DNA of 64,000 bases from Eledone cirrhosa (Eukaryota), in the NCBI GenBank assembly GCA_964016885.1, contig OZ024742.1, positions 180,730,001 to 180,794,000 on the forward strand, read 5' to 3'. This document shows positions 17,248 to 54,945 of the stretch, in pieces (within the stretch, counting starts at the first letter, position 1; each line of letters opens with the position of its first letter). A program made the position numbers and the translations under genes. The notes under the pieces were generated by a model, which had not been told where the DNA came from, did no database searches, and saw nothing but the letters and a program-made list of their open reading frames with translations.

Positions 17248-17252
<5 letters not shown>

Positions 17253-17641
17253 TAAGAGGAATTCCAACTTTGTCTGATTTACTCGTTTTATTTACAATCC
17301 TTTAAAATATATATAATGGTATTATAATGAAATAGTATGATAGAATATTAAATTCTAAGTGTTAATTGAACAAGTACGTTCATGCTTTCGCAATCTTCAG
17401 GTTCATGATATGTGGTGACAGTCGAGTTTGCAAGTTTCAACGGTGCAGTTGAAAATTGCAAACTCGACTGTCACCACATATCATGAACCTGAAGATTGCG
17501 AAAGCATGAAAGTACTTGTTCAATTAACACTTAGAATTTAATATTCTATCATACTATTTCATTATAATACCATTATATATAATTTAAAGGATTGTAAATA
17601 AAACGAGTAAATCAGACAAAGTTGGAATTCCTCTTATTAAT
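17248..17641. repeat. Near-perfect ~394 bp palindrome (arms ~194 bp, 6 nt loop) next to (TA)n tracts
   Basis: Arms are reverse complements with about 3 mismatches; centre at 17442-17447. Confidence 0.95.
17484..17522 (+). ncRNA. Minimal type I hammerhead ribozyme in palindrome arm
   Basis: TGAAC-CTGAAGA-T-TGC GAAA GCA-T-GAAA-GTAC-TT-GTTCA; stem I 5 bp, GNRA-capped stem II, palindromic stem III. Confidence 0.75.
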
Positions 17642-17684
17642 ATAATCTTCTATACACAATCATACACACCCGTGTATATACCTA

Positions 17685-17724
<40 letters not shown>

Positions 17725-17844
17725 AGAAAGTATGATCCCAACGGCAGAGCTCAAGCCGTTTCGATGGCTATTTCTGGACTACTCTAAGTATTGAGTACTC
17801 TGGTGCGTTATGGTCCATCTGGTTCCTTACCACAATTCCTCCGT

Positions 17845-17871
<27 letters not shown>

Positions 17872-17875
<4 letters not shown>

Positions 17876-18221
17876 AGGCACATGGAGGCACATGGCTTAA
17901 TGGTTAGAGCATTGGCCTTGCAATCGAAAGGTTGTGAGTTCAATTCTCAGACCGGGTGATGTGTTGTTTCCTTGAGCAAGACACTTTATTTCACATTGCT
18001 CCAGTTTACTCAGCTGTAGAAATGAGACGATAGGGATTGAGATCCATATCATTCCACTGCAAAGTGGTCGTGGAGGTGCCACGGCAAAAAAGCACCCAGC
18101 ACTCACTGTAAATGAGGTTGGTGTTAGGAAGGGCATCCAGCTGTAGAAATCAAGCCAGAATCAGTTCCCGTCTCACCCTTGCAAGCAGGGAAAAAGCGGA
18201 CGTAAAATGAAATGATGATGA
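17872..18221 (+). mobile_element. SINE family B
   Basis: Same head, core and RTE tail as 11629; (TA)n on both sides. Confidence 0.88.
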
Positions 18222-18414
18222 TATATATATATATATATATATACACACATTTTTGAATATGACATCATTACAGTTTTTAAAGGCAATATTTTTCAATTGG
18301 AAATACAACTTAATTTAGCTTCTATTGCCCTTGATAATCTGATACTGCATAAAAATCAACTCATCAGCATTTTGATTTTATTTATTTTTTCTTGAAAATT
18401 CATTTTCATATAAC

Positions 18415-18735
18415 ACGGGCATGCCTACAAAGTCAAAAAACAGCACAGCTCCCATGACTTTCAGAAACATTTCTTCATGCTCAGAGTTGCTGAAGCATGG
18501 AACAAACTACCTGCATCAGTTGTTAGCTGTCGAGACACTGCATCCTTTAAAACCTCCATGCTTCCTGAAATTCGCCAACACTACACCTGATATCCCCTCT
18601 TCATACACACACACGCATGTATTTCATAACTGTTCATTTTCTTGACATTTGAACATTATTCTATGTACTATACATGCACCTTTGATGAGTTGTAGTGCAC
18701 CTGAGCACTGTGCACAATAATTTCATTATTATTAT
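18415..18735 (+). mobile_element. 3' end of a CR1-like LINE
   Basis: Translates RKHFFMLRVAEAWNKLPASVV..FK; tail CAATAATTTCATTATTATT, matching window positions 1-26. Confidence 0.7.
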
Positions 18736-18736
18736 T

Positions 18737-18925
18737 GGTGGATTGGCAGTATTGGTAGAGAGTCGGATGCCATGCTTTCCAGCAGAGTTACGTCCCTTTA
18801 CAGTCTGAGTTCAAATCCCGCCGAGGTTAACTTTGCCTTTCATCATTACGGGGTTGATAAAATAAAGTACCAGTAATGTACTGGGTAATTGCTGACCTTG
18901 TGCCACAAGTAGAAACAATTATTAT
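18737..18925 (+). mobile_element. SINE family A inserted in the (ATT)n tail of the CR1 fragment
   Basis: Family sequence bounded by (ATT)n. Confidence 0.85.
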
Positions 18926-19238
18926 TATTATATATAAACACACACACATAGAGACAGATATATATATATAGTCAAACCAAAAGCTTGCAGGGATTTAGAA
19001 CATTTTTTATTCTACATACATTTCAATGACAATAAGGAGTAATATATAATCGATAATTTCAATTAATTAATTACTTTCCCTCATCACCTCATCCTTAAAA
19101 TGGGCAATTTGTTTTAATCATCTAGCACACTTATTACAAAAATAAGAAGTGCAGGTTTGATTTCCACGCATGCTGCTGCCCATTTTCTTCTGTTCCTGGG
19201 TCTTATACAGTATGTCCTATTATTATTAGACTATAGTT

Positions 19239-19562
19239 AAGGCAGTCGATTGGCAGAATCAGTTGAGTACGGGACAACATGCTTAGCGACATCGAGTTAT
19301 GGCCATTTACGCCCTGAGTTCAAATCCCACCGAGGTTAGCGTTGCCTTTCATCCTTACGAGATCGATAAAATAAAGCACCAGTAATGCACTGAAGTCGAT
19401 TTAATTGACTTTCCCCTCCTCTTTAAAATTTACTGGCCTTGTGCCTAAAGTTGAAATCATTATTAGACTTTGCCTTTCATCCTTACGAGGTCGATAAAAT
19501 AAAGTACCATTAATGTACTGGGTAATTGCTGGCCTTGTGCCGAAAGTAGAAACAATTATTAG
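19239..19562 (+). mobile_element. SINE family A plus an adjacent 5'-truncated copy
   Basis: Core motif present twice (~19343 and ~19470). Confidence 0.8.
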
Positions 19563-20714
19563 ACTGTAGTAAAATAAATATGGTGAAAGTTACTAATTCA
19601 ATTCAATTTTTATATAATGTTCAGCAAATTGCTATACTGCAGGCATTTGCTTTATGGGAGATATAAACAAATATCAACGTTTTAGACATGACATTTGTAG
19701 TGACTGGAACACACACGCATACACACACACACACACACAAAAGATACATGTCCAAGATATCAAGCAGTATGACTGACCTTGAAATCATGTGGTTCCAAAT
19801 TGAACTTCTTAATCACCCGGCCATGCCAGCATCTATTACATTATGCTATTTTATCCTATATTGTAACAATCCTGCCAATCCACCACCACTATAAACACCA
19901 TTTTGCTACAGTACGGAACAACAGACACACAGACACATTTTACACTACACATCTACATGAGTGTACATAAGCAAAATGCAGAGCCCCTGGCCTGTCTAGG
20001 AAATCAATAGCTCTGCTTCAGTACTGAATTGGACTAAGTAGACCTGTTCAACCCTTGCTAGTAAGGAAAGCAGATGTTAAAATGATGATGATGAGGTTGA
20101 TATATCTGTAGTCAGGTGGTAGTATTACCAATAAATGTCATAAAGATTTCTAATTTATACACAAGTTTAGCACTTTAGGATGTGAGGAAAAGTTATTGGT
20201 ATTGAACCCAGTACTTGCCTGGTACTTTGCATTTCCTCCTTCCTGGGTTGACAAAATAAAGTTAACCTTGACAAGATTTGAACACTGAATATAGAATTGT
20301 ATTTAAATACTGCAAAGCATTTTTCGGCACCCTACCATTACAGGCAAACAGTGACATAATCAGTGAGCCATTGTATCTTTTCTGCCTTAAATTGGTGTTT
20401 ATAATGTTTCTAATATAGTTCAATGTGTTTAAAGTCTGGTGATGGACATGATTGATTGTCGAGGCTAAAGAATCAATGGTATTAAATAACATTATGTGTG
20501 GTAAGCTGTTTGTAATTATATCAAACGTTTTGGATAATCAGAGAGATCAATGTAGAGAACAGCTCACTGTTTTCATGTCTAATAACTACAGTCCATGTGG
20601 TTATATTTATTGTCAAAACATGACAGCATCCTAAGGGCCAAAGCAATAAATCATTAAGAAGCAGACTACAAATTTTAATTGCTATAATTGGAAGGAATGG
20701 GTTAAATGAGTTCA

Positions 20715-23601
20715 TTTAACCCATTCCTTGCCATAATACTGAGAGATACAGCCTATGGTTTTCAAATTATTTGTAAAATAACCAAGAATTTGGAAGTATT
20801 TAGTAACAAAGCTAACTTCCTTGTTAAGTTCATACATAAAATTATTATGGAAATTTTAAAGATAAATATAAACACTCTAAAACAAGCAGGTTTGTAATAT
20901 GGAACAAAGAGCATTTTCATGTGGTTAAAAAGAATATATTTCATATTCTGATTTCATCTGGATAACTAATGAAAGATTCTGCCTGTGATTGTCAAATCAT
21001 TTTGAAAATAATCAAGATTTTGGTTGGATTTAGTAAAACAACTAACTTTCCAACTACTGTTGAACTGATGATCGGAACATAACAAAGCTTCTTGGAAAAT
21101 AGATGTGAAATGATAACAAAACTTTAAAAGAAGCAGTTATATATTGTAGAACCAAGGACAGTTTGGTATTGAAAAGGTCAGTTCTGAATATAGTTTTTAG
21201 AATACTTCTGAGAATAATCACATAACAATTGCATGATTGCAATTTACCATATTTCTAATGAAAATCACAACTTATAATATTGAAATAATTTAAAAAATAA
21301 TCAAACTTGTGGAAAAATTTATTAAAATAACTTTCTCATTAAGCTAAAGAATGGAGCAAAACTTAACAAAGGTCCATATATAAAATTATGAAGGAAGGTT
21401 TTTAAATAACTATACTCAGTTTAATACAAGTAGTTTTGTATTGTAGAACTATGGTTGCTTTAAGGCTGTTTGGTATTGCAAGCATTAAGCATCTGTAATA
21501 TAGCCTTGAGAATAATTCTGTAAATCATAATATACCAAAGAAATTTTTATTGCAATTTTAGCATACTTGCTAGTTGAATATTTGATGTATATAATAAAAG
21601 AAATCTACATAATTTAGATGCAAAGCACTTCTATATATTTTAGTATATCTTAATACTTAATAAGTTCTTGAGAAACTACTGAAGTGTTTTTCTTTAATGC
21701 TTTCATCACCATATTTCTTATGAAAGACACTGCCTATAATTTTCACATCACATAATTCTGAAAATAATAACATCTGAAAGATTTTATTTGTTTTGTGATT
21801 TCTAATTTAGGTACAAAGCTAGCAATTACATCGACCTCAGGCCTTAACTGGTACTTTATTTGATTGACGTTGAAAAGATGAAAGGGAAAGTTAACCTCTG
21901 TGAGATTTGTACTCAGAACATAAAGAGTTGAAATAAATACTGCAAGGTAGTTGTCTGATACTCTAACTACTCTGCCAACCCACCATGCTAACAAACTCTC
22001 CATTATTAAACTAGAGTTTGGAACATAACTTAAAGGTGCTTAGATGATGAAAGGTTTTTAAATAAATATAAGCACCTTAAGTCAAATAGTTCAGTATCAG
22101 TGAATCTTTGAACTGGAGTCAGTTTCAAATGTTTGATATTAAAAGTGGTAGGTCATAGTTTCAAATATTGATATTGTCTGTTTGCATGCATTAAAGTTTT
22201 GTGATGTGCTGTCCCTACTTTGTATGTTTATTCACTGTTATTGTTTCCGGTTTTTCTCAAACTCAATGTTGATTTGTGCATTGATCTCTACATATTTATC
22301 TATAACATTTTATCATTTGACCAACATACCAACAGAAATGATTCTATCTTATCTTCTGGCATATTGGAATTTTGAAAGTAATCTTCTACCGGCTGATATC
22401 ATCATCATCATCATCATCAACGTTTAACGTCCGTGTTCCACGCTTGGATGGGTTTGGACGGGGGTTTTCCCACTTGAGGCAAGAGTGATTGTCTTGCTCG
22501 CATAGGACTGTCTGGCAGGTTTTCTACAGTTGGATGCCCTTCCTAACACCAACCACATTTACAGTGTGGGTCTGGGAGGTTTTTACCGTGTTGCCTACAC
22601 AGCCACATTACAGCGTGGACTGTGTGTTTTTTTGTCGTGACACCTACACGATCTCATTTGTTTCGGCCTGGATGGTGTGGCACCAACATAACTTTACATA
22701 GAAGGAGGCGGTGTGGATGGGGGGGGGGGGGGTGTATTTTGTTAGAGATCCCTACTGACTGTAGTAGGTTTTACTATGTATTTAGGTATGCATTTATTTA
22801 ATCTTCCTTGCTATAAACAGTTTTGTACAGTAGAACCAGGAGTGGTTTCAGTTGATTTCATATCAGAAGAGTTAATGTAATATATTGCAAGCCTCTCAGC
22901 CAGGAAATACCTATCTATCTAGGAATGTTGACAACGTCTGAAAATTGTAGATAGAACTAGACCCATGCCTAACAAGCTATTTATAATATTTGCAACTTCG
23001 AACAATAATGCATGTATACATGTCCTGTAACTCTTGAAGGAGTCATAAGGGTGCCATATCGACACACAGCATTTCGAGGGCATTTTTAAACCTTGCAGAG
23101 CCGATCTCCATTTCTTCCAGAGAATGATAGAAAGCGAGAGAATGGAAGTGAGAAAGTGATATAGAGGAAGAATTGACCCCAATATTAGACTGTTACTTTT
23201 TTTATCGACTCCAATTGGATGACAGACCAAGTTGACTATTATAGGATTTGAACACAAAGAACAGAGAAGCAAAACAAATACTGCAAAGCATTCTATCTGA
23301 TGTTCTAATGACTCCATCAATTTGCCACCTTACAAAGATTACAAAAACTAAACCTTTTGTTACCAAATTTATAATGAAAGACACTGCCTATGACTTTCAA
23401 ATAATTTTGAAAATAATCATCAATTCAAAGAAATATAGTAAAGTGTTTCATTATTAAACTGGTATGCGGAACATAACTTGAAATAGTTCTTACATAAAAT
23501 TTAGATTGAAGGGTTTTAGAGATAAACATGAATACTAACATAAATGGGTTTGTTTAGATGAACTTGTGTGGTTTCAGATGGTTTAAAATTAAAAGGGTTA
23601 A
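20715..23601. repeat. Cluster of at least 5 degenerate co-oriented ~250 bp piggyBac-type MITEs (second family), mixed with SINE and RTE tails
   Basis: Recurring CCATATTTCTAATGAAAGACAC..AAAATAATCAA..GGAACATAACTT; AAAAGGGTTAA end at 23601; inverted relatives at 25433-25680, ~35492 and ~39200-39545. Confidence 0.6.
22398..22790 (-). mobile_element. RTE LINE 3' UTR fragment
   Basis: (CAT)n tail plus GGATGCCCTTCCTAACACCAACC; similar pieces at 30873-31226, 40062-40265, 43150-43513 (+), 48365-48750 and 52428-52680. Confidence 0.8.
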
Positions 23602-25777
23602 CAATTTGTTAGAGTTGCACAAAACATTTATAAGATTATACAAACAATTCAACATGATTTTTACTGCAAGACTTGGCAAATTACAATATTTCAATATTTT
23701 TAATTGCAGTCTCTTGCCATTTCTCACACTACAAGATTTCACGGAGAACTTGGTAACTGTATAGCTACAAAAATTAGTACATTTCTATACATTTCTATAC
23801 TTTAACAAATTTTATTTGAAACAATTAATGCTTTAAAGTACAATTTCAAAGTTAATTAGTCAATACAAATGTAACATGCCAACTAAAAAGAAATATAGAT
23901 AAATAAAAATATTAAAAAATACATTAAAAATAAACAAAATCTTTAAATTATGAACAATTGTAAAAAAAAGATAATTTTACTCAACACTGCAGATTATTAA
24001 TATTCTGCTATATTGTAAAATAATTTCATTAATATATTTCGATGGCTGCCACTTTTCACAGCAGGGTACAATGAATTCATAGAATTTTCACAGAAAATTT
24101 TAAAATATTATTTTTTCTTTTATACCAACTCTATCGCTACTTTATTTGCAATGTTATTTTTTTCAAGATCAGAATTGTATAGAAATACTAGTCCAACATT
24201 GTTGGATTAGTATTTCTATACGATGGACATAGCATATAAACTGGCCATATCCGTCCAGAATTCTCTCACCTCTTTCTGTTCAAACCAGTCATAAATGGTC
24301 ACTTATAATGATATTAAGGTATTATTCTCAAAATAAATAACATCAAAATCTCATAGATTCGATATTATGTGAAATCTCATAGATTTGATATTATGGGGAA
24401 ATACAATAGTAAATAGAGAATAATGTAAATGCTAAAGTGTTTTGTGAGGGAGTTTGGTAGAGAGCTACTATAAAGGAAGCCCCTCATATAAATATATATA
24501 TATGTGTGTGTGTCCTCATTTTTAGAATAGGCATTCAAAGCACTTGAAGATTAGGTCACAAATTTGATTCCTTTTACAATCTGGAGATATGGCCAATATT
24601 GGGCATTGAAACCTTACAGAGTGCTTTTGTTCCGTATATGAATATAGATAAATAATATATTTCAGCTCTCATCCCTGATTGAGCACTGTTTTCCTTTTTC
24701 ACACCTACAGATATTTACTACACACACATATTCGGTTGAGGACACAACAATCACTCTAATGTTGATGACAAGATAAAATGCACTCTTTAAATTGATAGTG
24801 CCTGTACTACTGTAAAATGTACCCATTAAAGTGGTTGACATGAACAGGAGCATCCTACCATAGAAAACCTGCCAAAATGGAACATATGAGCAGAATATAG
24901 TGATCTTATTTGTCTCGTCTCAAAGCGAGAAAACCCATCCAACTCATGCCAGCAGGGGAAGCTGATATAAAATGGTGATGAATATGATGATGACACATAC
25001 CATACAAATTGTCAAAGTATGATAAAATGTTTAAACAAATTTTAAGAAATTGATCCACAATTTTCAAATTTAGTGAGAGAGGAAAAATGAAATTAATATG
25101 AAGCCATGACCATATTTTTGTTGTTTATCCCCAGGTCAGCTCTGACTAAGCAGACCCATGATCAAAGATATTTGAACCATGATCATGTTGCTTCTTTACC
25201 CCTATGTTAATCCTAATCAGAGCAGATTTATGATCAAATATATTTCAGTCACAACTATAAAACTTTTTATTCATTTTTTTGTTTGTTTTGTAGGACTACA
25301 TTGTACAACATGGTTTTCATTTTATAAGACTGTAACTGTTGTTTCTAGCATTTCAAACAACAACCTAGCAGCATCTTCATTGTCCTGCTAGTTTAGTTAT
25401 TCAGATGAAGTCAAAATTTAAGTAAATCCTCCTTAACACTTTTGATACCAAAGAACCTGATGTCACCATTGCTTACATGTTATAATCCAGCTTGTTTTAA
25501 ATAGCTTATATTTATCTAAAAGCCTTCCATCATAATTTCATATATGGTCCTTTGTTAAGTTATTCTCTAAACACCAGTTTAATAAAAAGAAAGCAAATGA
25601 CAAAATCTCTCCAAATTCTTAATTATTTTAAAAATTATAGTTATTATCTTATATTATAAATAAGATAACAAAAGGGTTAAAGTGTTCATATTTATCTACA
25701 TGCTTCCAAACACTTATTTTCAAATTTGTTTGAAAATTATAGACAGTGTTCTTTCATTAGAAAGCAGCAGCAGAAGC

Positions 25778-25833
<56 letters not shown>

Positions 25834-26719
25834 ATAATCATAACTCAAGATAGAGAGTTCAATAGATTTTATTTATACAATAAAGATATGAACAAGTTAG
25901 TTTGTGTGATAAATGTTGAAGGACTTTCAATATAAGGTTGTCGCTGCTGTCTTATGGCAGGCAATATTAACAGCAACACAAATGCAGGCATCTTTATCAG
26001 GAAAGATATATTGTATGATAATATAATATCATATCAATGTCTCAGATATTGAATTAACAGCAGAAGATAGAAACTATAAATTGCTAATCAAAACAATGTA
26101 TGGTGAATAATATACTGAAAAAGATTCTATTATGTATGGAAGGATATAACAGCAATAAAAGTTATGTTCCCACACATACACACAGATATGTATATAAAAT
26201 TTGTTAAAAATGGTGACTGTTTACTTTGAAGTCTCATTGCTGTTATTGGCTTAACACAACACTCTCTTGGTAAACTGATAACCTTGGCGAAACTTTGAAG
26301 CAAACAGTCATGATTATTAACAAAAATATTGATTCTATATAATGAATATGAGTCTTTTGTGCAGTGGAAGTTTAGTACGTTTATTACACAAAACCATAAA
26401 ATAAGTGGTTGATGATAGGAAGGGAATGTAGGTGTAGAAGACAGGCCAAAAGAAAAAAAGTTGAGAGAATTCTCCAGTTTTGTCAAGACTACAGCTACCT
26501 CTCTAGTGTTGGTGCCATACAAAAACACACCCAGTACATTCTACAGAGTGTGGGAATGTACGTAAGCATGATGCCCCTACTCTCAGTTCTTCTGTGGGGT
26601 TAGTATCTCAGGCTAGGTATAGACTTGTTCTAGATTAACCCATCCAACAAATACTAGCTAGAAAAACTGATATTAAATAATGATAATGTTAATTCCTTGT
26701 ACGACAACTACAGGAGAAG

Positions 26720-28392: not shown

Positions 28393-28551
28393 ATATATAT
28401 ATATATGCGTGTGTGTGTGTGTGTGCATCCTGGGTTCAATCAAGCCTAAACACAGTAAGTAAGGTACTCAATACATAGTAGAATATATACAATATTCAAT
28501 ATAGAAATGGCTTCTACAAGACTAGAACTGTTTCATTCGAAGGGAATATAT

Positions 28552-30130: not shown

Positions 30131-30159
30131 TACCATAGATAAAAATGATAATAATGGTT

Positions 30160-30358: not shown

Positions 30359-31225
30359 TAATAACAACAATAATATGGACAAGGTGTTAAAATTTCATTA
30401 CATTTATTGAGGCGCGATGCGCATTATGTAAATATGGGTTATATCGAATTATTATAATAATATTTGATTTGTTTGGAAACAAACGGCCTCATCATGCTAT
30501 TTTGTTCTTGAAGATTATCATCATCTGTTTGTTCAACAGTACAATCAAGGAACAGCCAACATGTTTCTGGATCATTTCCTTTCATCAGGAGATTTGGGAA
30601 ACTCGGAGTAGTTAGGAAGGTAAACACCATTATGCCATGTATTTTGTAGTTTATATATATATACTTGCTCTGTTAAAAAAGTATCCAACTTTATTTTTCC
30701 TGTAAGAAATAATGAATTTAGGGAGACAAATGTGTTCTGTATTGAAATGCATACATTTAGGTTCATGTGTATTTTTTTTTTTTTTGTGAGGTTACTGGAT
30801 GCATCTGTTGTCAAGAAATCAGCATGTAAGGTGCTTTGTCAGCTATTCTTTTCAAAAACCCATGTATGTATATATCATCATCATCGTTTAACGTCCATAT
30901 TCCACGCTTGCATGGGTTTGGACGGGAGTTTTCCCACTTGAGGCAAGAGTGGTTGTCTTGCTCGCATAGGACTGTCTGGCGGGTTTTCTACGGCTGGATG
31001 CCCTTCCTAACACCAACCACATTTACAGTGTGGAACTGGGAGGTTTTTACCGTGTTACCTACACGGCCACATTACAGCGTCGACTGTGTGTTTTTTGTCG
31101 TGACACCTACACGACCTCATTTGTTTCGAGCTGGATGTTGTGGTACCAACATAACTTTACATTGAAAGGGGTGGTGTGGATGGGGTGGGGGTAGTGGGAC
31201 GGGGGTGTATTTTGTTAGAAGTGCC

Positions 31226-31312
<87 letters not shown>

Positions 31313-34466: not shown

Positions 34467-34497
<31 letters not shown>

Positions 34498-44150: not shown

Positions 44151-44164
44151 ACATACATATATAA

Positions 44165-44204
<40 letters not shown>

Positions 44205-45426
44205 CATATGTATATCATATGTATGTATATCATATATGTATGTATATCATATGTATGTATATCATATGTATATATGATATACATACATATGATATACATA
44301 TTTATATATATATACATATAATATACAACATTTATATATTTATATATGTATGTATGTATATATATATATATACATACATTCACTAAAGTCAATTCTATCA
44401 ACTTCAATCTTTTACATTTACAGAACTGGCTTCTTGCCTGATGAAAAAATCAATACATAAGACATATATATTTGGTCATCGATACGTAAGACATATATAT
44501 TTGGTCGTTAAATCTCTAAACACTATCAGGAATATTACTTATTGGTTTTATTTCATTTGATTCTTTTAAGATTGTATTTTCATTCAAAGAATTACTATTT
44601 TCAATATACAGTATACCATGTGTCTTGAAATGGAAAATAGAAAGAACAGATAAAATTATGACATTGTAAGACATAAACAACCAGCTTCTCTCACATAGAC
44701 GTACAATCACACACCCTCCCCCAACAAAAACCCTCCCACACTACACCCTCCCATGCTCACACCCACTCACACGCCCTCATTCACACACATATGTGTTTAT
44801 ACATATTTTCTTTTCAGTCCTTCCTCTTCTCGCTTTCTATCTTTCTATTTCATCTTTTATTTCTCATTCTATCTTCTGATGAAGGACCAGTATCCAAAAC
44901 ATTAAGACTCTTTTCCTACTATATCAAACATTAGACTAAGATATTTCTTCATTGTACTCTATTATTTGCTTTGTTGTTTCCATTTAAGTTTTGCATATAT
45001 TTCATCATCATCATCATCATCATCATCTTTTTACGTCCGTTTTTCCCTGCTTGCAAGGGTTGGATGGATCCTATTCAGCACAGCATCTCTCCACTAGTCA
45101 CGGTCCTTCATCATCTCCTCGGTGAGTTTCAGCGATCTGAGGTCTGCTCTCACCACCTCCGCCCATGTTTTACGTGGTCTACCTCTTCTGCGTCTTCCTT
45201 CTACTGGGATTTCTTGGCACTTCTTTACCCAGCGGTCATCCTCCATGCACATCACATGCCCATACCATCTCAAGCTTCTCTCCTGCACACCACAACATAT
45301 CCCTCTTATACCCAGTTTCTTTCTCAACTCGTCCATGCTTGGTCGTTCACACACATTGACATTGCACATATTTATATATATGTATAATTAAAAAAAAAAA
45401 ATATCGCTCTACATGACTGAATACAA

Positions 45427-45949
45427 TAAATGTAATCTGAGTTTTTCGAATATTAATAATAATATTCGATTCGTTTGCAATTATGCAAACAGCCTCTAAT
45501 ATGCAAATCAGGCCCACAGTCACTGCATATTTTAGAAAATATATATTTTCACTAGCTCTGGCAGGTGAACAGTGAACTGCACTGATGAAGCGTAATGCCC
45601 AGAAACATTAGTGTCTGCAGTTCTGTTTACACGCCAACACAAGAGCAAGAATGAAGGGCTCATTCTACTGACATGGCTTTAAAAAAGAGGGTGCTTGCAT
45701 AATTGCAAAGGAATCGAATATTATTATTAATAAAGGCGGTGGATTGGCAGTATCGATAGAGAGTCAGACACAATGCTTTGAAGCATAGAGTTACGTCCCT
45801 TTATGATCTGAGTTCAAATCGCGCTGAGGTTAACTTTGCCTTTCATCCTTACGGGGTCGATAAAATAAAGTACCAGTAATGTACTGGGTAATTGCTGGCC
45901 TTGTGCCAAAAGTAGAAACAATTATTAATATTCAAAAAACTCAGATTAC

Positions 45950-45954
<5 letters not shown>
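45427..45954. mobile_element. Inverted-repeat element with central hammerhead; right arm split by SINE A (45733-45925)
   Basis: TAAATGTAATCTGAG..TTTGCAATTATGCAA is the reverse complement of 45696-45731 plus 45922-45954. Confidence 0.8.
45574..45623 (+). ncRNA. Type I hammerhead ribozyme
   Basis: GAACTGCA-CTGATGA-(weak stem II)-GAAA-CA TTAG TG-TC-TGCAGTTC; 8 bp stem I, GUC triplet at 45613-45615. Confidence 0.75.
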
Positions 45955-45991
<37 letters not shown>

Positions 45992-45995
<4 letters not shown>

Positions 45996-47280
45996 ACAGG
46001 GAGAAAGAGACGATTATTAGGAAGAAAAATTTTTTTTTTCCTTTTTTATTTCTCTCTCTCTTTTTTTCTGGGTTAGAAAATGATTAAAACGAAATGTTTA
46101 ACTTTGTGTGAAGTGTTAAGGTATTAGTTGATTTATTTATTATTTAACAATGGCATTTATTTATCTATTTATATATTTAATAATTGTCTATTACCGGTTT
46201 CAGCATTTTTATGCATTATCAAATGATAAGGTGCAGAAATAATAATATTATTTATAAACAAGGTTTATGAAGTGAAAAGAAAAAAGAAAAAGGAAAAAAA
46301 ACGTGCATAATGTCGAGCATAAAAAGTCAATGTGGAAGAAAAAATAATTTTATTTACAGGCATAGTTATTGAAGTTAAGCAGATCAAAATGTGTTAATAT
46401 AGCAAGAGTGCTTAGTTGATCCATGATTCCGTGATGGAGGCAAATGGTGGACTGAGGTTTGATATGATTTCCCTTTTTAGAGAGTTAATATGCAAGGGGA
46501 AGCAATTCTTGCTGGATGATATTTAATTTATTTAAGAAAAAGGATTAGGTAGGGTGTGAGGGAGGTAACTATTGTAAATGTTCGATTGTTTGTTGCAGTT
46601 TTAGATTGGTCCGATTTTTAGAGCATTAAGTAGTAATTGGAATTTGTTAATGAAATATGTTTCCTTATTTGTACGTTGGATGAAAGTAGCGTTGTCTATG
46701 AATTTGTAAATAGGGAACATTTTAAAGTTTGGATGTGGTTGTGAGCACAATTGGCGATATGTTCACTAAATGCAATATTTCTGTATTCCTGTATTTTAAT
46801 TTGTGATTTATGGACGGTCATACGTTGACGGAGGCTGTTTTTTGTCTGTCCTATGTAGGGCTCTTGACAACCTGAGCAGGTAATAACATAGATAAGGTTT
46901 TCAGATGCACATGTAAAGGTGTGTTTAACTGTGAAACACTGTCCTTGTTTAAAATGGAATATTGAACATTCTATTAGATTTATGCATATGCCACAGTTGG
47001 GCCTTCTGTGTTTTGTTACTGTAGGGTTCATTGTGAGAGTTTGCTGGATTTTGGCTTGTGTGGGGATGTTTTTTATGGATTTAGGTTGTCTTTTGCTCTT
47101 TATGATGTTGTGTGTTTGGAAGATTTTGTTCCTTCTTGGGTCTCTTTTTAGTAAAGGAATGTTCTGGAGGATGGTGTTGAATGCCTCATTGTTGAGGGGT
47201 TGTGTGTAGAGATGTATGGTAGAGTTTTTTGTTGCAGTTCATTCCTGGGTTTGGGGTCTCTGAGTACCTGGATGTCTAGT
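45992..47280 (-). mobile_element. 3' fragment of a Neptune-like PLE (GIY-YIG plus 3' UTR)
   Basis: RPNCGICINL..NLIYVITCSGCQEPYIGQT..RMTVHK; degenerate hammerhead at 46188-46226; (TA)n flanks. Confidence 0.88.
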
Positions 47281-47639
47281 ATATATATATATGTATTTAA
47301 AAGGTAAACAGAAATAATAACACAATCAGTACAGTATATGGAAGGAATATATTAGGTTAACGCTTGAAATAGGAGGAAGAGGGTCTTAACAGTTTGGAGA
47401 CTAGTCTTTCATCAGAAGAAAGAATGAACAATTAGATTGATTGAAGGGACGGGCAGGGTGGAATTGGAAAAATGTCTTTAGATAAAAATAACAGGTCCTT
47501 TCATGTTGCCATCTCTTGGAAAACTGTTGATGCTGGCGTTTTGTGTATCATATATTTTTTTTAGAAAGAGGATGATGGAGTGCGTCAAACACATATATTT
47601 ACATATCGTCATTGCATCCAATCAAACAGGCCTGACAAT

Positions 47640-48345
47640 ATCTCTCCAGAATTCACTATTTTCTATTACTTATGACAACTGCACCCTACTGAGGTTTGTA
47701 TCATCTGAGAAGTGTTCAAGTCCTTGCACCTGATCCAAACAACATCACTGACTCATTTTGATTTTTCTGGGAAGATCTGACTTTCATATCTTTTCACCAA
47801 CTTCCATTTTGTTCATTGCAGCCCAGTATTTGACATTCCATTAATTATGTCCTTTTTTGAACTCATCCCGTTGCCCAAATATAGAAAATCATCAACTTGA
47901 TTTAGTATTCCACCAACTAGTGGGACAAGATTTCCATCTTCTTGGTAACATTTATATGTAGAACAATTTTCCTGGCAGAGAATTCAATTTTATGAAGAAG
48001 TTCTTAAATTTGATTAATGGTATTTGATAGAAGAACTATGTCATCAGCAATATCTGTATCACATATAGCAGTTAAAGGGGTTCACTTACTTCTCCTTTGT
48101 GTTAATATCAAGCCGAGATCTTGTTAATTAATAATGGCTTCCCTCATGGCATAGTCCAGAGCGATTATTAAAAGATATAGTACCAATGTGTCATATTGAA
48201 GAACACCCGCTAGGATTTCAAAGACTCAGTATCAACATCAGGAATGAGAACTTGAGCTTCTGTGTTTATGTAGAGTAAATCTATAGCAAAAACTATGGCA
48301 TCAGGTATGCCATATGCAACTAAGATTGACATAAGCTTTCCTCAA
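47640..48345 (-). mobile_element. Decayed RTE-X-like LINE RT fragment
   Basis: EILAGVLQYDTLVLYLLIIALDYAMREA and QVDDFLYLG remnants. Confidence 0.65.
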
Positions 48346-49539
48346 TGCATACACACATATATACATCATCATCATCATCATCATCGTTTAACGTCCGTGT
48401 TCCACGCTTGCATGGGTTTGGACGGGAGTTTTCCCACTTGAGGCAAGAGTGATTGTCTTGCTTGCATAGGACTGTCTGGCGGGTTTTCTACAGTTGGATT
48501 CCCTTCCTAACACCAACCACATTTACAGTGTGGGGCTGGGAGGTTTTTACCGTGTTGCCTACACGGCCACATTACAGCGTGGACTGTGTGTTTTTTTGTC
48601 GTGACACCTACACGATCTCATTTGTTTCGGCCTGGATGTTGTGGCACCAACATAACTTTACATTGAAATGGGCGGTGTGGAAGGGGGGGGGGGTGTATTT
48701 TGTTAGAGATGCCTACTGACTGTAGTAGGTTTTACATTGTATTTAGGTATAAAGATATATATATACTTAATAAGTAGCTTTCTATAGGGGATCAGGAGGT
48801 GACCACAGTTAAAGAAGATATTCAACACATTAGTAGAGTATAAGCATCTTTGTTCAATACAGGGGATCAGGAGGTGATCATATCTTGATTATACAGATCT
48901 GGATTTTGGCTTGGTTTCTATGGTTGAATGCCCTTCTTAATACCAACCATTTTAAAGTATGGACGGGATGCCTTTTATCGGGCCTCCAAAATAAACTTCT
49001 AACTGGGGGGACTGGATGCTTTTTCAACATGTCCACCCAACAAACGGACAGAGTGGGTTGAGTGCTTTTTGTCGCATTACCAGCATAACCACCTCGAAGG
49101 TGAACAGTGTTCTTTTTTATTCTCTTGTCACCAATAAAACCACCGTGTAGGGTGGACTGGGTGCTTTTTTTCTCATGTTACAAACACGACCACTATACAG
49201 AGTGGACTGGGAGCCTCTTATGTCACCAGCATGACCTCCCTTACAGGGTGGACTTAATGCTTTCCTTTTTGTCATCGCACCATCATGATAGAAAAAAATG
49301 TGAAACGCATCCAGCTTTCCGTACATATGCGCATGTGTTAGACAGAAGAGATATATCAGAGGTGTGGGTGTGGGGGTTGGAAGAGGGGCAGCCAAGTATG
49401 CAAGTTGGACATGAATAAGGTGAGTGAAATATTTAGTTAGTGGTGGGGGCAGGGGTATTAAGACTCAAAAGAGTGAATAGTTTAAGGGTAGGGAAAAGAT
49501 TGGTGCAGATTTGTGTCCTCTACAAGTTTGTTTCATCCT

Positions 49540-50200
49540 GTGTACATGAGATGGCTCAAGGTTTCCTAAGACTTCTTCTCCCATAGTTTCCATCAAATTT
49601 GAGCACATTGCATCTTTTTATATGGATGTTATCCTCCATATGCATCACATGTCCATAGCACCACAACTGCCTTGCCTGCAAACAGCATCTGTCCCCTCTT
49701 ATGCCCAGTTTCTTTGTCAGTTCATTGACACTTTATCATTCATGCTCACTACTATTGCATTCAGCAAAGATTACAAGCTTCATTTCTTTCCAATCTATAT
49801 AGGTCCTCTGCACACAGTGCCCAGGTCTCACTTCCATGCAGCATTGCTGTTCATACACAGGCAACATACTCTCTGCCTTTGGTTTTGAGGGGAAAATTAA
49901 TTTTAGCTAACAGCAATTGTAGATCCCTAAACTTTTCCCACCTCCACTGCACATTTTGTTACCCAGGTAACAGAAGCTATCAACTATATCTATGGAGGCT
50001 TCTGAACATTTAACAGAGCTTGTTTCTCGTGAGCTCTTGCTGTTTACTGCTCCTGTGCATCGGCCACGTTTGTTAACCACTACATCTCTTTTGTAGCCAT
50101 AATTTTCATTTGGGATAGAGGATGGAATTTCAATCCAGTCCTTTACTGCACACTGAGCAAAGTCATTTCCCTGAAGGGATTGGGGCTCTGTTTTCTTTAC
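49540..50200 (-). mobile_element. Decayed RTE LINE fragment
   Basis: Collinear with other RTE copies (Cys finger, AMLHGSETWAL). Confidence 0.75.
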
Positions 50201-50224
50201 AACTAACTAGGACTTTATCAAGAT

Positions 50225-50640
50225 GATTTTAAAAGATTTAGAGGCGGGAAGACAAGTGGAGCTGGAATGTCTGAGTGAAAGTTTCATGGGGTCAGATAGA
50301 TCTGAGGAACAGTGGCCGTTGTAGTAGCAGTTAAAAATACAGAGTAAGGAGACAGAGCAACTGTGAGCCAGAGTCTGGAGCATGCCTGTCAGTGACTTTA
50401 AGCCAATCAATTGAATCACCTTTTTTCTGAATGTCGGTCTTAACTGAGCTTTGTAAAGGATCAGAATTTGTTAAGAGCTGGATTAATTTCTGATTCTGAA
50501 GAGAAGAGCCATTCTTTTAGATACAATTCTAGCTATGTTTATGATGTGCATTTTTGATGAGAGATTAAGGTCTAGCATTTGGAGTGAACGTGAAGGTTAT
50601 TCTAATCCCATGCTGTTCGTGTTTAAGGGTGGTGAGGTGT
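50225..50640 (-). mobile_element. Decayed LINE 3' region (Jockey/CR1-group-like)
   Basis: LQTLAHS..SLLCIFNCYYNGHCSSDL resembles the C-terminal motif of these LINEs. Confidence 0.5.
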
Positions 50641-50914
50641 GTTGATGTTTTAGTTCCATACACATACAATCAACAAATCAAATGAATGATAACAATAAAA
50701 ATGAATTAGATCTTTTAATTATTTGGTTTCAGTTATACAACAGTCATAAATAGTTTCAATGATCATAGCTACCCCTGAACTATTACACACTTTATTGATT
50801 TAAAACTGCCAAACTTCAACAAAATAGGACAAAAGTAATAAAGCACATACATATGCATGCACACAAAATTATGCCTCACTATACCACAATGCCATGCCAG
50901 ACCACAATCTGCTT

Positions 50915-51162
50915 CACCCCACCACACTACACTACACCACACTACATTACACCACACCACACTACACTACACCACACCACACTACACTACACCACACTAC
51001 ACCACATCACACCCCACCACACTACACCATATCACACCCCACCACACCACATCACACTGAAACCTCAATCTAAGAGAGACATCATTCATAAGAAGAGAGT
51101 TAGTCTGTTTTTACTGGTCTTCATAACCAGCATAACCCTTCTCTCTCTCTCTCCCCCCCCCC

Positions 51163-51235
<73 letters not shown>

Positions 51236-51240
51236 CTGTG
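50915..51240. repeat. (CACTA/CACCA)n pentamer microsatellite and (CT)n
   Basis: Direct inspection. Confidence 0.95.
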
Positions 51241-52239
51241 TGTCTGTGTATCTATCTTTCTTTATTTCTTATATTTAGATTTCAAGAATATGAAAGATCT
51301 TTGTTGCCAAAGAATTTGTTGTGAATCTGACACTGTATATTGACAATGACATACATTGTTGTTCAAAAACTTCTATAGGTCACAGGTTAGTTATTGTTAA
51401 TAAGATTACAATTTCACCTACTTTTAACCTCATTGGTAAAAATGAAAAAAAATATATATATATTAAAATCTGTAATTTCATAATATTTATATCTACAATA
51501 CATTTCCATCAGTTTTAACCTCCAATCATCATCAAATGTCTTATTCCTGAATGCACAAGTAGTCCCTGGAGACTGGTTTCAAATATTGATTGATCTCCAA
51601 TCATCATAAGATGCCATATTTTTATAAATTTTTTTCAAGATAGCTGACTATCTCCTATCTACCTTTTTACCATTTTATTTATTTTCTACTCTGGTGTATC
51701 TTCTTTATTCTTCTTCTCTCATCAAGAACACCTTCACTTCTCCCTCTCATTCTATCTTCCAATGAAGGACTAATGTCTGAAATATAATGACTCTTTTCTA
51801 ACTATACCAAGCATTAAACTAATATACCATCATTTCATTGTGTTGTTCTCACATCTTACTTTTCCTTGTTAACTTCATACAAACATGCATATATATATCA
51901 TCATCATCATCACCACCATTTAACATCCATTTTTCCATGCTACCATGGGTTAGATGAGCTGTCCCATTGTTACCCAAGCCAGGTCAGTTGACCATATCTT
52001 GCACATAGAGAATGGATTTTTGCTTTGTTTCTACAGCTGGTTGCCCTTCCTAACACCCAACCACATTTATAGTGTATACTGGGTACTTTTTTCATGACCC
52101 CCTACACAATGACTTTAGAGTGTGGGCTGGGAGCTTTTTGTCATGTCACCAACACAACCACATTAGAGTATATATATATATATATATAATGAAGAAGTGA
52201 AGAATAACATGGATAAGCTATACAGTAGGGTTTATTCCA

Positions 52240-52361
52240 AGTATTAACATATGTTTCATTGGCTAGTATGTGATTAGATGCATCTAAAAATTGCTATCTG
52301 CAATGGTGGTGTGACACTTGATTTTAAATATTGCTAATACCAGTCAAATTATCAAAATACT
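52240..52361 (-). ncRNA. Degenerate long-stem-II hammerhead in a PLE-like terminal fragment
   Basis: AGTATT-TTGATAA-T-TTGACTGGTAT...ATACTAGCCAA-T-GAAA-CATATG-TT-AATACT; flank homologous to 15961-16035. Confidence 0.6.
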
Positions 52362-52684
52362 GGTTTTGGATCTGGCAATACAATGTATTCATACTGAGGA
52401 TATAGCCCACCAGTGTTTTACTATATATCATCATCATCATCATCATTGTTTAAGGTCCATCTTCCATGCTAGCATGGGTTAAACAGATTTGTCCCATTTA
52501 GAAGCAAGTTGGGTCGGGTGACCATATCTTGCTCATATAAGACTGTTTCTGGCTGGTTTTCTACGGCTGGATGCCCTTCCTAGCGCCAACCACATTTGCA
52601 GTGTGTGCTGGGTGCTATTTGTCATGACACCTACATGACCAATTTACAGACTGGGCTGGATGTTTTGTGGTACCAATGTAACAT

Positions 52685-52718
<34 letters not shown>

Positions 52719-52737
52719 TTTTGTGTATATACATATA

Positions 52738-54548
52738 TCATCATCACCTTCATCTTATGTCCATTTTCCACGCTAGCATGGGTTAGACAGGTTGTCCTAT
52801 TGTAGGCAATGCTAGTTCAGGTGACCATGTCTTTATCACACAGGATTGATTCTGGCTTGGTTTCTACAGCTGGATGTCCTTCCTAACACCAACGTCATTT
52901 ACTGTGAGTACTGGGTGCTTTTTGTCATGACACCTACATGACCACATAACAGTGTGGGCTGAGGGCTTCACTGGATACATTTAATTTGGCTTGTCCTCAT
53001 GGGGGTGTATGGGAGGGTCGGGTGGGGCATATTGTATATATGCTTTGGCTTATGCTTTTAGCAAGTCATGACTTCTGTATTACTGCATATCACCAGAGAT
53101 CTCAGTCATATGTCATCACCTGTGAGAGGTGCAATTAGGTATGGTCAGCTTTTATCAGCTCATCCTGAGTATTTCTGGACCTCCCCACTCCAAGGCTTCC
53201 ATCGACTTTGAGCACTCTGCACTTGTTTATGCAGCTCTCATCCTTCATACGAATCACATGTCCATACCAACGTAATCTTCTCTCCTGCACACAGCATTTG
53301 ATTCCTCTTATACCTAGTTTCTCTCTCAGTTCATTTATGTTTCACCATTCTTGTATATTACTATGACACATCCATCGGAGTGTAACGGATAGTTTGGATT
53401 GATGGTATGATGGTTTTGATGAAAAGAATAATGCTATGATTGAGTTGTTAACAATGTTTATTTTATAATAACTGTTTCTATTTTAGGCACAAGGCCAGCA
53501 ATTACCCAGTGCATTACTGGTACTTTATTTTATCGACCCCGTAAGGATGAAAGGCAAAGTCAACCTCGGCGGGATTTGAACTCAGATCGTAAAGGGACGT
53601 AACTATGCTGGACAGCATGGCGTCTGACCCTCTACCGACACTGCCAATCCACCGCCATATTTTATAATATTTTATAATAACAATATTCGATTAGGACATA
53701 GAATGATAGAATTTATGACACAAATATATCCGTACAATAAATTGGTAGCTGCTAGGTGTTACATAAATGTATGTATCAGAGAAGACGATATAATATATAA
53801 GTTGGGTTGTGTCTTGCAGATACAATATGGCAGGAAGAATAGGATGAGAGTATAATATAACAATATGAACTTACTATGCATGTCGGTGTGTGTCTATTCT
53901 TAGTTTATCTTATTCTCATAGTAGTAATGGTCAGTCTGTCAGGTTGGCATGGCTGGCTGTCTGTCTGGCTGGCCGAGAGGGTAAGCCAGTAAGAGTCAAG
54001 AGAAAGATAGAGTGAAAGGTCTACTGACACCACATAGTTACCTTCTTGACTGCTGCTTTGATTCTCCTCTTGTTCCCTCAGTCCTTGTATTTATAATAAG
54101 TGCTAAGTTAGAAGGATGGATATATCATCTGATCTGTGGTTAGCATCTCCCAAGGGGTTGGAGTCACAAGTCAAATGGAATGTCATCCATCATCGTTGAC
54201 AACTTCCAACTATGGCTTGTCCCAAAGGTGGGAAAGCTCAGATTCAGTTTCGAATCTTCGCCAGTATAATGTAGGAGTATTCCGTTGTAGGAGCATGCAA
54301 GCTTCATTTCTTTTAAATCTATGCAAGTCTTCTGTGCACATCACCCAGGTCTTACTTCCATGCATCATACAGTCTGCCTTTCATTCCGAGTGAGAAGCCT
54401 TTTGTTGCCAGCAGTGTAGTAGCACCCTGAACTTCCTCCATCCTGTTCTTAGTCTGGTTACTGTACTTTTAGAACACTCACCACAGCTGCTAATTCAGTC
54501 ACCTAGGTAGCAGAAACTGTCTACTGTTTCTATAGAGCCATCCCAGAA
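52738..54548 (-). mobile_element. RTE LINE 3' fragment interrupted by a solo LTR
   Basis: RTE sequence ..CATCCATCGGAG resumes as GGAGCATGCAAGC at 54290. Confidence 0.85.
53381..54289. mobile_element. Solo LTR with 4 bp TSD, containing nested SINE A (53470-53657)
   Basis: Termini TGTAACGGA...TCCGTTGTA; GGAG duplicated at 53377-53380 and 54290-54293. Confidence 0.75.
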
Positions 54549-54688
54549 TTATATATATATGTATATATATATATATATATGTGTGTGTAAATGAAGTAAT
54601 TCCGTCGGAAAAGTCCTGGAAAAAAGAGTGCTCTATGTAGGTAACAGGGCGTAATAGTTATGTAATAAACAACATAAGGCAATTATTA

Positions 54689-54938
54689 TATAGTTATGTA
54701 ATAAACAACATAAGGCAATCATTTCAAAAAATATTGCTTTCAATCATCAGAATGAAAAAATCCTGGTGTATTTATTGACGTTGGATTTTAAAAAACAAAA
54801 ACCAAAGATTTTTGTTTTTAAAATCCAACGTCAATAAATACACCAGGATATTTTCATTCTGATGATTGAAAGCAACATTTTTTTTGCTTTTAAGAAACCA
54901 CTGGTAAATGAAATAATTGCCTTATGTTGTTTATCACA

Positions 54939-54945
<7 letters not shown>
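54689..54945. repeat. (TA)n-flanked palindromic element centred near 54803
   Basis: Arms ATAGTTATG..AAACAACATAAGGCAAT and CCTGGTGTATTTATTGACGTTGGATTTTAAAAA are mirrored; left arm has an internal deletion. Confidence 0.9.
54852..54913 (+). ncRNA. Canonical type I hammerhead ribozyme
   Basis: TTTCATT-CTGATGA-TTGAAAGCAA(loop)TTGCTTTTAA-GAAA-CC ACT GG-TA-AATGAAA; 7 bp stem I, 10 bp stem II, GUA triplet ending at 54906. Confidence 0.88.

Follow-up and report, generated by a model that had tools for sequence, protein, structure and literature searches.

Three hammerhead-bearing inverted repeats

The window, a 64,000-nt stretch of the Eledone cirrhosa genome, contains three inverted-repeat elements that are mutually unrelated in sequence and all lie in (TA)n (Table 1). 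Their existence is borne out as described in the initial annotation, and so are two lesions in the mirror arms: the A>C change at 17378 in element 1 and the loss of ~20-25 nt near 54720 in element 3. The boundaries are redrawn, as each element carries an additional tail on one side, and part of the right arm of element 2 is an inserted SINE-like repeat that is found at the identical insertion point in other copies of its family. In element 2, only ~70 nt are inverted, and no palindrome surrounds the ribozyme.

Table 1. Features of the three elements, in window coordinates. PLE types are assigned by motifs, and cut sites and folds are predicted.
Feature	Position	Strand	Remarks
Element 1 tail-less arm	17248-17443	-	5' hotspot to internal start site 1; adjoins (TA)n
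Element 1 mirror hammerhead	17400-17372		A15.1>C at 17378
Element 1 sense arm	17446-17641	+	First ~197 nt of Neptune/Nematis-type PLE RNA (5' UTR/pLTR)
Element 1 hammerhead	17484-17522	+	5-bp stem I, 3-bp stem II, palindromic stem III; predicted cut after 17517; dimer fold predicted
Element 1 tail	17642-17686	+	Between start sites 1 and 2; sense arm only
Element 2 tail	45391-45426	-	On inverted arm
Element 2 short inverted arm	45427-45495	-	~70 nt
Element 2 monomer part	45496-45732	+	5'-truncated piece of ORF-less ~438-nt monomer
Element 2 hammerhead	45574-45623	+	8-bp stem I, stem II weak in window copy; predicted cut after 45615
SINE-like repeat in element 2 right arm	45733-45920	+	10-nt target duplication at 45723-45732 and 45921-45930
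Element 2 sense arm remainder	45921-45955	+	Stops at start site 1 against (TA)n
Element 3 tail	54588-54653	-	Left side only
Element 3 duplicate of arm end	54654-54687	-	34 nt; between tail and left arm
Element 3 left arm	54690-54800	-	~20-25 nt missing near 54720: stem III and GAAA core gone
Element 3 sense arm	54805-54945	+	5' UTR/pLTR of Hydra-type PLE; stops at start site 1 against (TA)n
Element 3 hammerhead	54852-54913	+	7-bp stem I, 10-bp stem II; predicted cut after 54906; monomer or dimer in prediction

Type I hammerhead topologies are located at 17489-17517, 45582-45615 and 54859-54906, each with a stem I and a short palindromic or near-palindromic stem III. All three possess the CUGANGA and GAAA cores, a UH cut site, and three stems with stem I open. 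A strict scan finds two matches in the window compared to an average of 0.02 across 200 block-wise dinucleotide shuffles, four of which contain one match. The three complete cores reported at these places are real and above chance. Element 2 fails the strict stem II test because the window copy departs from its family by a G>C change; in the family, stem II is intact. An Rfam scan at E<=1 reported no hammerhead. Its only matches are hairpin miRNA models below the gathering score, and these are not read as miRNA genes.

Variation in the hammerhead core is lower than in the flanks in family 3 (1.7% vs 5.4%, 105 arms) and family 2 (3.0% vs 6.6%, 75 arms), and the recurrent changes preserve pairing or fall at N7. 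In family 1, core conservation is not above that of the flanks (2.5% vs 2.2%) in a sample of 128 arms that the query enriches for the A>C variant. This variant, as at 17378, occurs in one arm at 12 of 37 loci and in both arms at three, retrieved with a query that itself carries it. It is absent from the aligned arms picked by their tail, accounts for less than 20% in short-read contigs, and completes a 5-bp local inverted repeat. It is probably a recurrent templated mutation. The disabled mirror had been taken as a trait of a class, yet both cores are intact in 10/17 and 9/12 two-armed family 1 copies and in 16/19 family 3 copies. The disabled mirror hammerhead is a copy-level accident.

Transcripts of the elements had been expected to be long self-cleaving hairpins, which folding does not support. 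In the whole-element fold of element 1, the hammerhead bases pair with the mirror arm, and a read-through transcript is predicted to form a hairpin that masks the ribozyme. The hammerhead is read as a passenger of the PLE repeat that could fold only in transcripts initiated at the centre and directed outwards.

Source elements of the three families

Genome searches, in each of which 40 candidates were scored, returned 337, 1710 and 2098 candidate loci per family. The arms recur dispersed on many contigs, and those of families 1 and 3 are also joined to PLE ORFs. The question posed at the outset, whether the palindrome recurs as a unit or as a PLE terminus, is answered for the terminus by these ORF-linked copies; a fixed palindromic unit is not supported, as the centres vary.

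Three copies encoding RT and GIY-YIG domains have a 3' end with 94-97% identity to the family 1 arm, and the parent has Pfam RVT_1 and GIY-YIG matches. It carries the GxKF and DKG motifs, a CX2-5CxxC linker and CCHH in the endonuclease (motif list from PMC8557442). In six of seven fetched family 1 regions, the arm, the tail and a short TA run lead into ORF1; the window haplotype is present in five, and two of the six start exactly at the hotspot. By sequence, element 1 is the 5' UTR/pLTR of a full-length PLE located elsewhere in the genome, with motifs of the Neptune/Nematis type. Selection by the tail alone gave 29 family 1 copies, of which 14 begin no more than 5 nt from the hotspot and four more no more than 17 nt away; five are shorter, six extend more than 350 nt further, and none starts between. 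The summed depth of short-read contigs, which is not a copy number, rises ~tenfold at this hotspot. A cap-derived extra G is not established there, since a single junction is unambiguous.

The parent of element 3 was pieced together from two different decayed copies. At locus L245, the arm starts at the hotspot and is followed by the tail and an ORF with the RWK and DKT motifs. At locus L244, the ORF, a 1.7-kb 3' UTR and the hammerhead are uninterrupted. The parent has RWK, DKT, CxCX5C and a (TA)n target, and CCHH is absent. Its fragments have no Pfam match and were assigned on the basis of motifs and tblastn similarity to other PLE-type ORFs. On these motifs, element 3 is the same 5' UTR/pLTR part of a Hydra-type PLE. 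A tandem at C28 was considered as the family 3 parent and has no ORF.

Element 2 belongs to a family of tandem units. The tandem period is 427-443 nt in 11 of 13 cases, and 28 of 30 monomer starts are preceded by the family's own tail and none by coding sequence. No PLE ORF continuous with the monomer was found in the 90 loci searched, some of which overlap, and no autonomous partner was found in these loci or in the genome search scoring 40 candidates, for which the query was made without the tail. Hydra-type fragments near family 2 copies are separate neighbours, apart from one direct junction in L162. The family fits the description of non-LTR retrozymes, with short tandem ORF-less monomers and a type I hammerhead. 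Element 2 is likely an ORF-less tandem unit with PLE ends that was moved in trans by a PLE enzyme.

These assignments divide what had been described as a single class of ORF-less palindromes: elements 1 and 3 are read as PLE termini, and element 2 as a tandem monomer. The suggestion of fold-back PLE termini stands for elements 1 and 3, where the arms match the terminal repeat of ORF-bearing PLEs. The other suggestion, a non-autonomous ribozyme retroelement, applies to element 2 only and without the hairpin unit, since the monomers are head-to-tail tandems. Mobilisation by the local PLEs is not supported, because no terminal sequence is common to the three elements and the window PLEs at 46.0-47.3 kb and 59.5-64 kb. 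These PLEs have 28-53% protein identity to the element 1 partner and belong to other families.

Arm architecture and origin of the palindromes

Each arm is a stretch from a fixed 5' point to either of two alternative 3' ends. A tailed end is paired with a tail-less end in 34 of 36 palindromes picked without the tail (15/17 in family 1 and 19/19 in family 3). The tails, 35-65 nt long and on one arm only, are a known PLE signature, and elements 1 and 3 have the other features of endonuclease-bearing (EN+) PLE termini, namely an inverted 5'-truncated copy and partial tandems. It is highly probable that elements 1 and 3 are head-to-head terminal repeats (the first 150-240 bases) of two endonuclease-bearing PLEs, with a likely twin-primed origin, and that element 2 is a tandem unit whose ends are alike and which was likely mobilised in trans. 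In the proposed reaction, a dimeric RT-endonuclease would cut the (TA)n site, and one cDNA would be primed per DNA end, using two adjacent internal sites on a single RNA. Both cDNAs would run off the RNA 5' end and then join there. The 5' point would correspond to the transcription start, both cDNAs would come from one RNA or one source locus, and joining would occur via short microhomology and template jumps. In favour of this reading, the arms within a copy differ at 1.96 positions compared to 6.77 between copies (25 loci, 189 columns).

The same origin could also produce the second arm by fold-back, in which the cDNA 3' end primes itself and synthesis returns as far as the first TA-rich site, or self-priming occurs on an antisense template. 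Self-priming has been proposed for head-to-head PLE palindromes (PMC3846280). The arms of a copy have subfamily alleles in common, and private variants occupy 18 columns in both arms, in mirror form, vs 26 columns in one arm; fold-back, or later arm-to-arm conversion, would also give such mirrored variants. The junction at the hammerhead cut site, moreover, has a 3-4-bp stem and a 5-nt loop. Against fold-back, long copies of families 1 and 3 end at start site 1 as well as at start site 2, and the commonest family 1 centre would require a 1-nt loop. In several copies (L100, L125, L134), the tail-less arm extends further 5' than the tailed arm, which is impossible for a copy of the tailed cDNA unless a later deletion trimmed the tailed arm. 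Fold-back is considered unlikely.

Head-to-head junctions also occur at the cut site. In family 1, 35 junctions fall exactly at the cut site vs four at a control centred on the 8-nt stem III palindrome, and both arms extend to the cut site in L339 and L340. L351/L352 is an 8.7-kb double full-length insertion joined at this point, with two 4321-nt arms that differ by three mismatches, open frames and a one-sided tail. A natural 4-bp inverted repeat lies exactly at the cut-site junction, and a 6-bp repeat located 14 nt downstream hosts a comparable junction in one of 29 tail-picked copies vs two of 29 for the cut site. No cut-site excess was seen in the fetched loci of families 2 and 3 or of eight other hammerhead families, which are small samples and in which TA-run noise beyond +25 was ignored. 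Short-read contig depth around the cut site is noisy. The clustering hints at in vivo cleavage without proving it, and the balance tips slightly towards a minority of family 1 templates having been cut by the hammerhead, so that their cDNAs end at the cut site.

The short palindromes, cut-site junctions included, might instead be longer head-to-head insertions whose centres later collapsed by deletion at small inverted repeats. Some centres do lie at natural hairpins (L108, L147, L347-L350, and a window palindrome at 55753-55855 centred on a stem III palindrome and not on the cut). Such collapse is improbable given that the main hotspot is common to single-armed and full-length copies, that the longer 8-nt palindrome is used so much less than the cut site, and that both arms stop at the cut site in L339 and L340.

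Slightly less probable still is a self-propagating non-autonomous class copied as a unit, whether MITE-like or a hairpin retroelement. The hundreds to thousands of candidate loci per family would suit it, as would a few recurring complex centres; L008 and L011 have one unusual centre, lie 44 kb apart and have unrelated flanks. The likely promoter and both start sites persist in every arm, which could make secondary sources of some palindromes. A unit-copied element would have a fixed interior and symmetric ends, but the centres differ among near-identical copies and the tails are one-sided. The subfamily haplotypes, the window's own included, are common to ORF-linked copies and palindromes, and beyond (TA)n there is no fixed target duplication or terminal motif. 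Assembly fold-back, which near-perfect palindromes in AT-rich DNA could suggest and which had been named as a refutation, is excluded at the level of families by the within-copy arm differences, the one-sided tails, the dispersal over many contigs with variable centres, and the junction sequence in short-read contigs from one study, possibly of the source sample.

Twin priming can also be read in a stricter form, for which the case falls a little short of even and which is offered tentatively. The stubs would be a fossil record of the PLE reaction, in which the dimer is bound to start from site 1 at one DNA end and from site 2 at the opposite one, the cDNAs run off at the transcription start or at a hammerhead-cleaved 5' end, and the two are joined. 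If this is true, the hammerhead cleaves in germline RNA and sets an alternative 5' end of productive templates, with the 8.7-kb L351/L352 insertion as an example, and family 2 is a retrozyme-like RNA whose mobilisation by a PLE is shown by its ends.

Relation to known PLEs and retrozymes

The three elements are, as judged from sequence, no new element class, and elements 1 and 3 derive from known kinds of PLE. They are ordinary PLE debris and belong in annotations under PLE termini rather than under MITEs, miRNA hairpins or a new ribozyme class. The junction map outweighs the elements themselves in importance. In the portions of the PLE literature available, the role of the hammerhead is called unclear, without in vivo evidence, and the steps to inverted structures are called unvalidated. 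Both the hammerhead role and the origin of inverted structures become testable in a young family that combines intact full-length copies with a sharp 5' point and cut-site junctions that can be counted. Titles and abstracts, including few subscription papers and no Repbase, contained no report of PLE junctions at the hammerhead cut site or of tandem units that lack an ORF and end in PLE tails.

Typical EN+ PLE insertions are described as an inverted 5'-truncated pLTR in head-to-head arrangement, one end of which has a tail of 30-40 bp (Arkhipova et al. 2013, PMC3846280; Craig et al. 2021, PMC8557442). The present elements resemble these insertions in the head-to-head repeat, the one-sided tail, the hammerhead in the repeat, the (TA)n target and the partial tandems. 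Compared with the units in those accounts, the stubs have no ORF sequence and appear several-fold commoner than ORF-linked copies, both arms stop at one sharp 5' point, and the tails are 35-65 nt. Pairs of minimal hammerheads that lie 100-700 bp from each other on opposite strands have been read as truncated PLEs (Cervera and De la Pena 2014, PMC4209133). They share the strand arrangement, comparable spacing, palindromic stem III and dimer fold; the present analysis differs in that the parents are traced and the junction positions mapped.

Frangieh et al. (2024, PMC11167929) describe a PLE protein that extends both target strands in vitro, with starts at two internal sites bounding the tail. 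This Poseidon element of Anolis, PAc, is alike in its two internal start sites around the tail, AT-rich target, extension of both strands and predicted dimer. In the present families, however, the 5' UTR contains the start sites, whose TA-rich sequence would permit short homology to the target. For PAc, that study saw no RNA ends at the hammerhead cut site, whereas family 1 junctions cluster there.

Metazoan non-LTR retrozymes are described with monomers of 170-400 nt, and their mobilisation by PLEs is no more than a proposal there (Cervera and De la Pena 2020, PMC7229834). Family 2 is similar in its ORF-less head-to-tail monomers, single type I hammerhead, low GC and many copies. Its ~438-nt monomer is slightly longer than those described in that source, and it differs in having PLE ends (tail, inverted arm and TA target). 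Family 2 thus provides sequence-level support for the proposed link between PLEs and retrozymes. By motifs, the element 3 parent resembles the Hydra clade (PMC8557442, section 11) in RWK, DKT, CxCX5C, the lack of CCHH, the hammerhead and (TA)n, and it differs from the elements of that section in its 1.7-kb 3' UTR, which is rich in microsatellites.

Palindromic stubs and their parent PLEs

The three inverted repeats of the window (elements 1 to 3, table) are real features of a known kind, the debris architecture of Penelope-like elements (PLEs). The 3.0-Gb genome of the window was searched, with first-look candidates of 337, 2098 and 1710 for the three families and 40 loci scored per search. 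Every element belongs to a dispersed family, and 40/40 scored family-1 loci, of the 337 candidates, match nearly the entire palindrome at 91-100%. The initial annotation asked whether each palindrome recurs as a unit or only as a PLE terminus. The centres (head-to-head junctions) vary between the dispersed copies, and the arms of elements 1 and 3 are PLE termini. In the copies, one arm stops at a TA-rich internal site that borders (TA)n, and the other extends 35-65 nt further as a tail, which the limits first drawn had cut off. In palindromes selected by a query that lacked the tail, exactly one end is tailed in 15/17 of family 1 and 19/19 of family 3. Elements 1 and 3 share this head-to-head, tailed architecture with PLEs already described (PMC3846280, PMC8557442), and hammerheads paired on opposite strands 100-700 bp apart have been read as truncated PLEs (PMC4209133).

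Window features of the elements and their surroundings
Feature	Window positions	Strand
Element 1	17248-17686	
Element 2	45391-45955	
Element 3	54588-54945	
Type I hammerhead topology, element 1	17489-17517	
Type I hammerhead topology, element 2	45582-45615	
Type I hammerhead topology, element 3	54859-54906	
Local PLE (GIY-YIG at 46.7-47.2 kb), decayed, ends in (TA)n	45995-47300	-
Degenerate hammerhead-like motif in this local PLE	near 46190-46230	
Local PLE (RT at 61.8-62.2 kb plus GIY-YIG-like), decayed, ends in (TA)n	59490-64000	-
Mini-palindrome, 22-bp arms plus tail, 88% like local PLE end at 46.0-46.05 kb	8266-8321	
TA-flanked repeat family with internal hairpin, adjoins element 1, many loci	17722-17846 and 8360-8535	
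Old family-2 end fragment, 75% identical	30426-30490	
SINE-like repeat	45733-45920	
Fourth small palindrome; its centre is the 10-nt palindromic stem III of a further hammerhead family	55753-55855	
Related sequence	8670-8750	

The arm of element 1 is a PLE terminal repeat plus 5' UTR, because it matches the 3' end of an ORF-bearing parent and precedes its ORF1. A GIY-YIG frame lies upstream in three family-1 loci selected by their tail; between the arm and the 3' end of these three RT plus GIY-YIG copies, identity is 94-97%. On the 5' side, 6/7 fetched regions read arm, tail, short TA run, ORF1, and 5 of the regions carry the haplotype of the window copy. The RT-endonuclease frame of the parent has GxKF, DKG, YLDD, a CX4CxxC linker and CCHH, the Neptune/Nematis pattern as set out in PMC8557442; this assignment is by motifs. 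In the family-1 parent (L352:299-3960; L308, L310-L312), ORF1 has ~450 residues, no Pfam match and a frame different from that of the RT-endonuclease. In all copies read, the two overlap at a U-rich site that looks slippery, and a programmed -1 frameshift is likely. Beside one family-1 copy lies a young PLE of another type (L153:3330-5123, - strand), with a 598-residue open frame and 839-nt inverted repeats that are 99.9% identical.

Element 3 also has an ORF-bearing parent. In locus L244, one continuous stretch runs from an RT-endonuclease frame through a GT-rich 3' UTR of 1.7 kb to the hammerhead arm, and L245 runs from arm through tail to ORF start. Pfam gave no match to these parent fragments. 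RWK, DKT and CxCX5C are present and CCHH is absent, which fits the Hydra clade as characterised in PMC8557442. On contig C28 (L149/L150), a tandem array with a ~2-4 kb unit joins the family-3 end and GT-rich UTR to a repeat with its own hammerhead-like core.

The earlier reading as fold-back PLE termini therefore fits elements 1 and 3, whose arms equal the repeats of ORF-bearing PLEs, but not element 2. Mobilisation by the local PLEs was also proposed. These belong to other families, have no termini in common with the elements and encode proteins 28-53% identical to those of the element 1 parent, so they were rejected as parents. The mini-palindrome has the same stub design, from the local PLE family whose end it resembles. 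TA flanks of PLE families are frequent insertion targets for one another.

A non-autonomous unit behind element 2

The alternative proposal of a non-autonomous unit suits element 2 and not elements 1 and 3. Family 2 is an ORF-less tandem monomer whose tail continues into the next monomer, with a period of 427-443 nt in 11/13 measurements. The family's own tail, whole or in part, precedes 28/30 monomer starts and an inverted arm the other 2; coding sequence precedes 0/30. Like those of families 1 and 3, the copies have short inverted arms, a tail on one side and flanking TA sequence. Element 2 probably works like a non-autonomous PLE, and it is built like a metazoan retrozyme; PLEs are proposed, not demonstrated, partners of such retrozymes (PMC7229834). 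The window copy consists of a short inverted arm and a truncated monomer with the SINE-like insert, which recurs at the same AT-rich family-2 site in seven loci (L064, L078, L080, L082, L165, L174, L175). In a single case (L162), rearranged coding fragments of Hydra type directly abut a family-2 tail, a possible hint to the enzyme that moves family 2.

Hammerheads and cut-site junctions

A descriptor scan bears out the three type I hammerheads noticed initially. Under strict settings there are 2 window matches against 0.02 expected (200 local shuffles), and element 2 fails owing to one stem II change. An Rfam search of the window reported no hammerhead. Among the three elements there is no sequence resemblance. 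Predicted folding gives dimeric hammerheads for elements 1 and 3, a monomer as well for element 3, and none for the window copy of element 2. The core is kept better than its flanks in families 2 and 3, and no better in family 1.

The initial annotation saw a single class of long self-cleaving hairpins with disabled mirror arms. The mirror-arm defects of elements 1 and 3 are present in these window copies, but both cores are intact in 10/17 family-1 and 16/19 family-3 palindromes and in 9/12 tail-picked two-armed copies. The full element-1 hairpin is predicted to pair the ribozyme bases away, and family 2 is built differently from families 1 and 3. The single-class reading thus fails.

The interest lies instead in the junction map, through which PLE mechanism and ribozyme role become testable. 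The ribozyme role is called unclear and without in vivo evidence in the PLE literature (as stated in PMC8557442), and no RNA ends were seen at the cut site in the Anolis PLE work of PMC11167929. In family 1, an arm starts at the predicted cut site in 2/29 tail-picked copies. The cut-site junction has 35 exact genome matches, a few of them no more than 2-3 kb apart, versus 4 loci for a control junction centred on the 8-nt stem III palindrome. Short-read contigs also contain the cut-site junction, and the 12 fetched loci have differing flanks and several haplotypes, with both arms reaching the cut site in 2. At L351/L352 (G000:C1:21.872-21.881 Mb), two full-length family-1 PLEs are joined at the predicted cut site in a ~8.7-kb palindrome, with arms of 4321 nt each (3 mismatches, 99.93% identical). 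Both PLEs have open frames, and one end of the palindrome bears a tail. Speaking against cleavage, the cut-site junction falls on a 4-bp inverted repeat, a similar repeat lying 14 nt further downstream forms the junction once in the same 29 copies, and ten other families, in small samples, gave no cut-site excess. On these junctions, we lean modestly towards in vivo hammerhead cleavage as their cause.

At least 8 further hammerhead families with a palindromic stem III lie in the flanks of many loci, several as head-to-head pairs; one has a covariant core U3-A8. The family of the fourth small palindrome is also present in fetched loci.

Start points and arm formation

Most family-1 arms share a start. 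Among the 29 tail-picked copies, 14 begin within 5 nt of one point and another 4 within 17 nt of it; 5 copies are shorter, 6 long (two of which look like one duplicated locus), and 0 start in between. Of 6 full-length copies, 2 start at the same point. Summed contig depth, which is not copy number, rises ~tenfold there in two short-read runs. In family 3, most arms begin 0-25 nt inside a comparable point, and some "long" family-3 calls are microsatellite noise. The family-1 point is probably a transcription start, because Penelope carries an internal promoter located in its repeat (as reported in PMC2377424). A cap-derived extra G was looked for at the 5' junctions and none was demonstrable.

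An enzyme that begins synthesis 197 or ~235 nt from the 5' end of its own mRNA would run off that end, yielding a short cDNA, and two such cDNAs, one from each cut DNA end, would make a palindrome. The PLE protein described in PMC11167929 extends both strands in vitro, and its synthesis starts at two sites, one at each limit of the tail. Both arms of one copy probably derive from one RNA or source, because they differ less within a copy than between copies (1.96 vs 6.77 differences). Fold-back synthesis of the second arm, or later conversion of the arms, is kept in play by private variants, which are mirrored in both arms at 18 columns and one-sided at 26. Two palindromes 44 kb apart on contig C7 (L008 and L011) have unrelated flanks and the same unusual centre in opposite orientation relative to the tail, which may reflect a template jump that occurred repeatedly, or conversion of one neighbour by the other.
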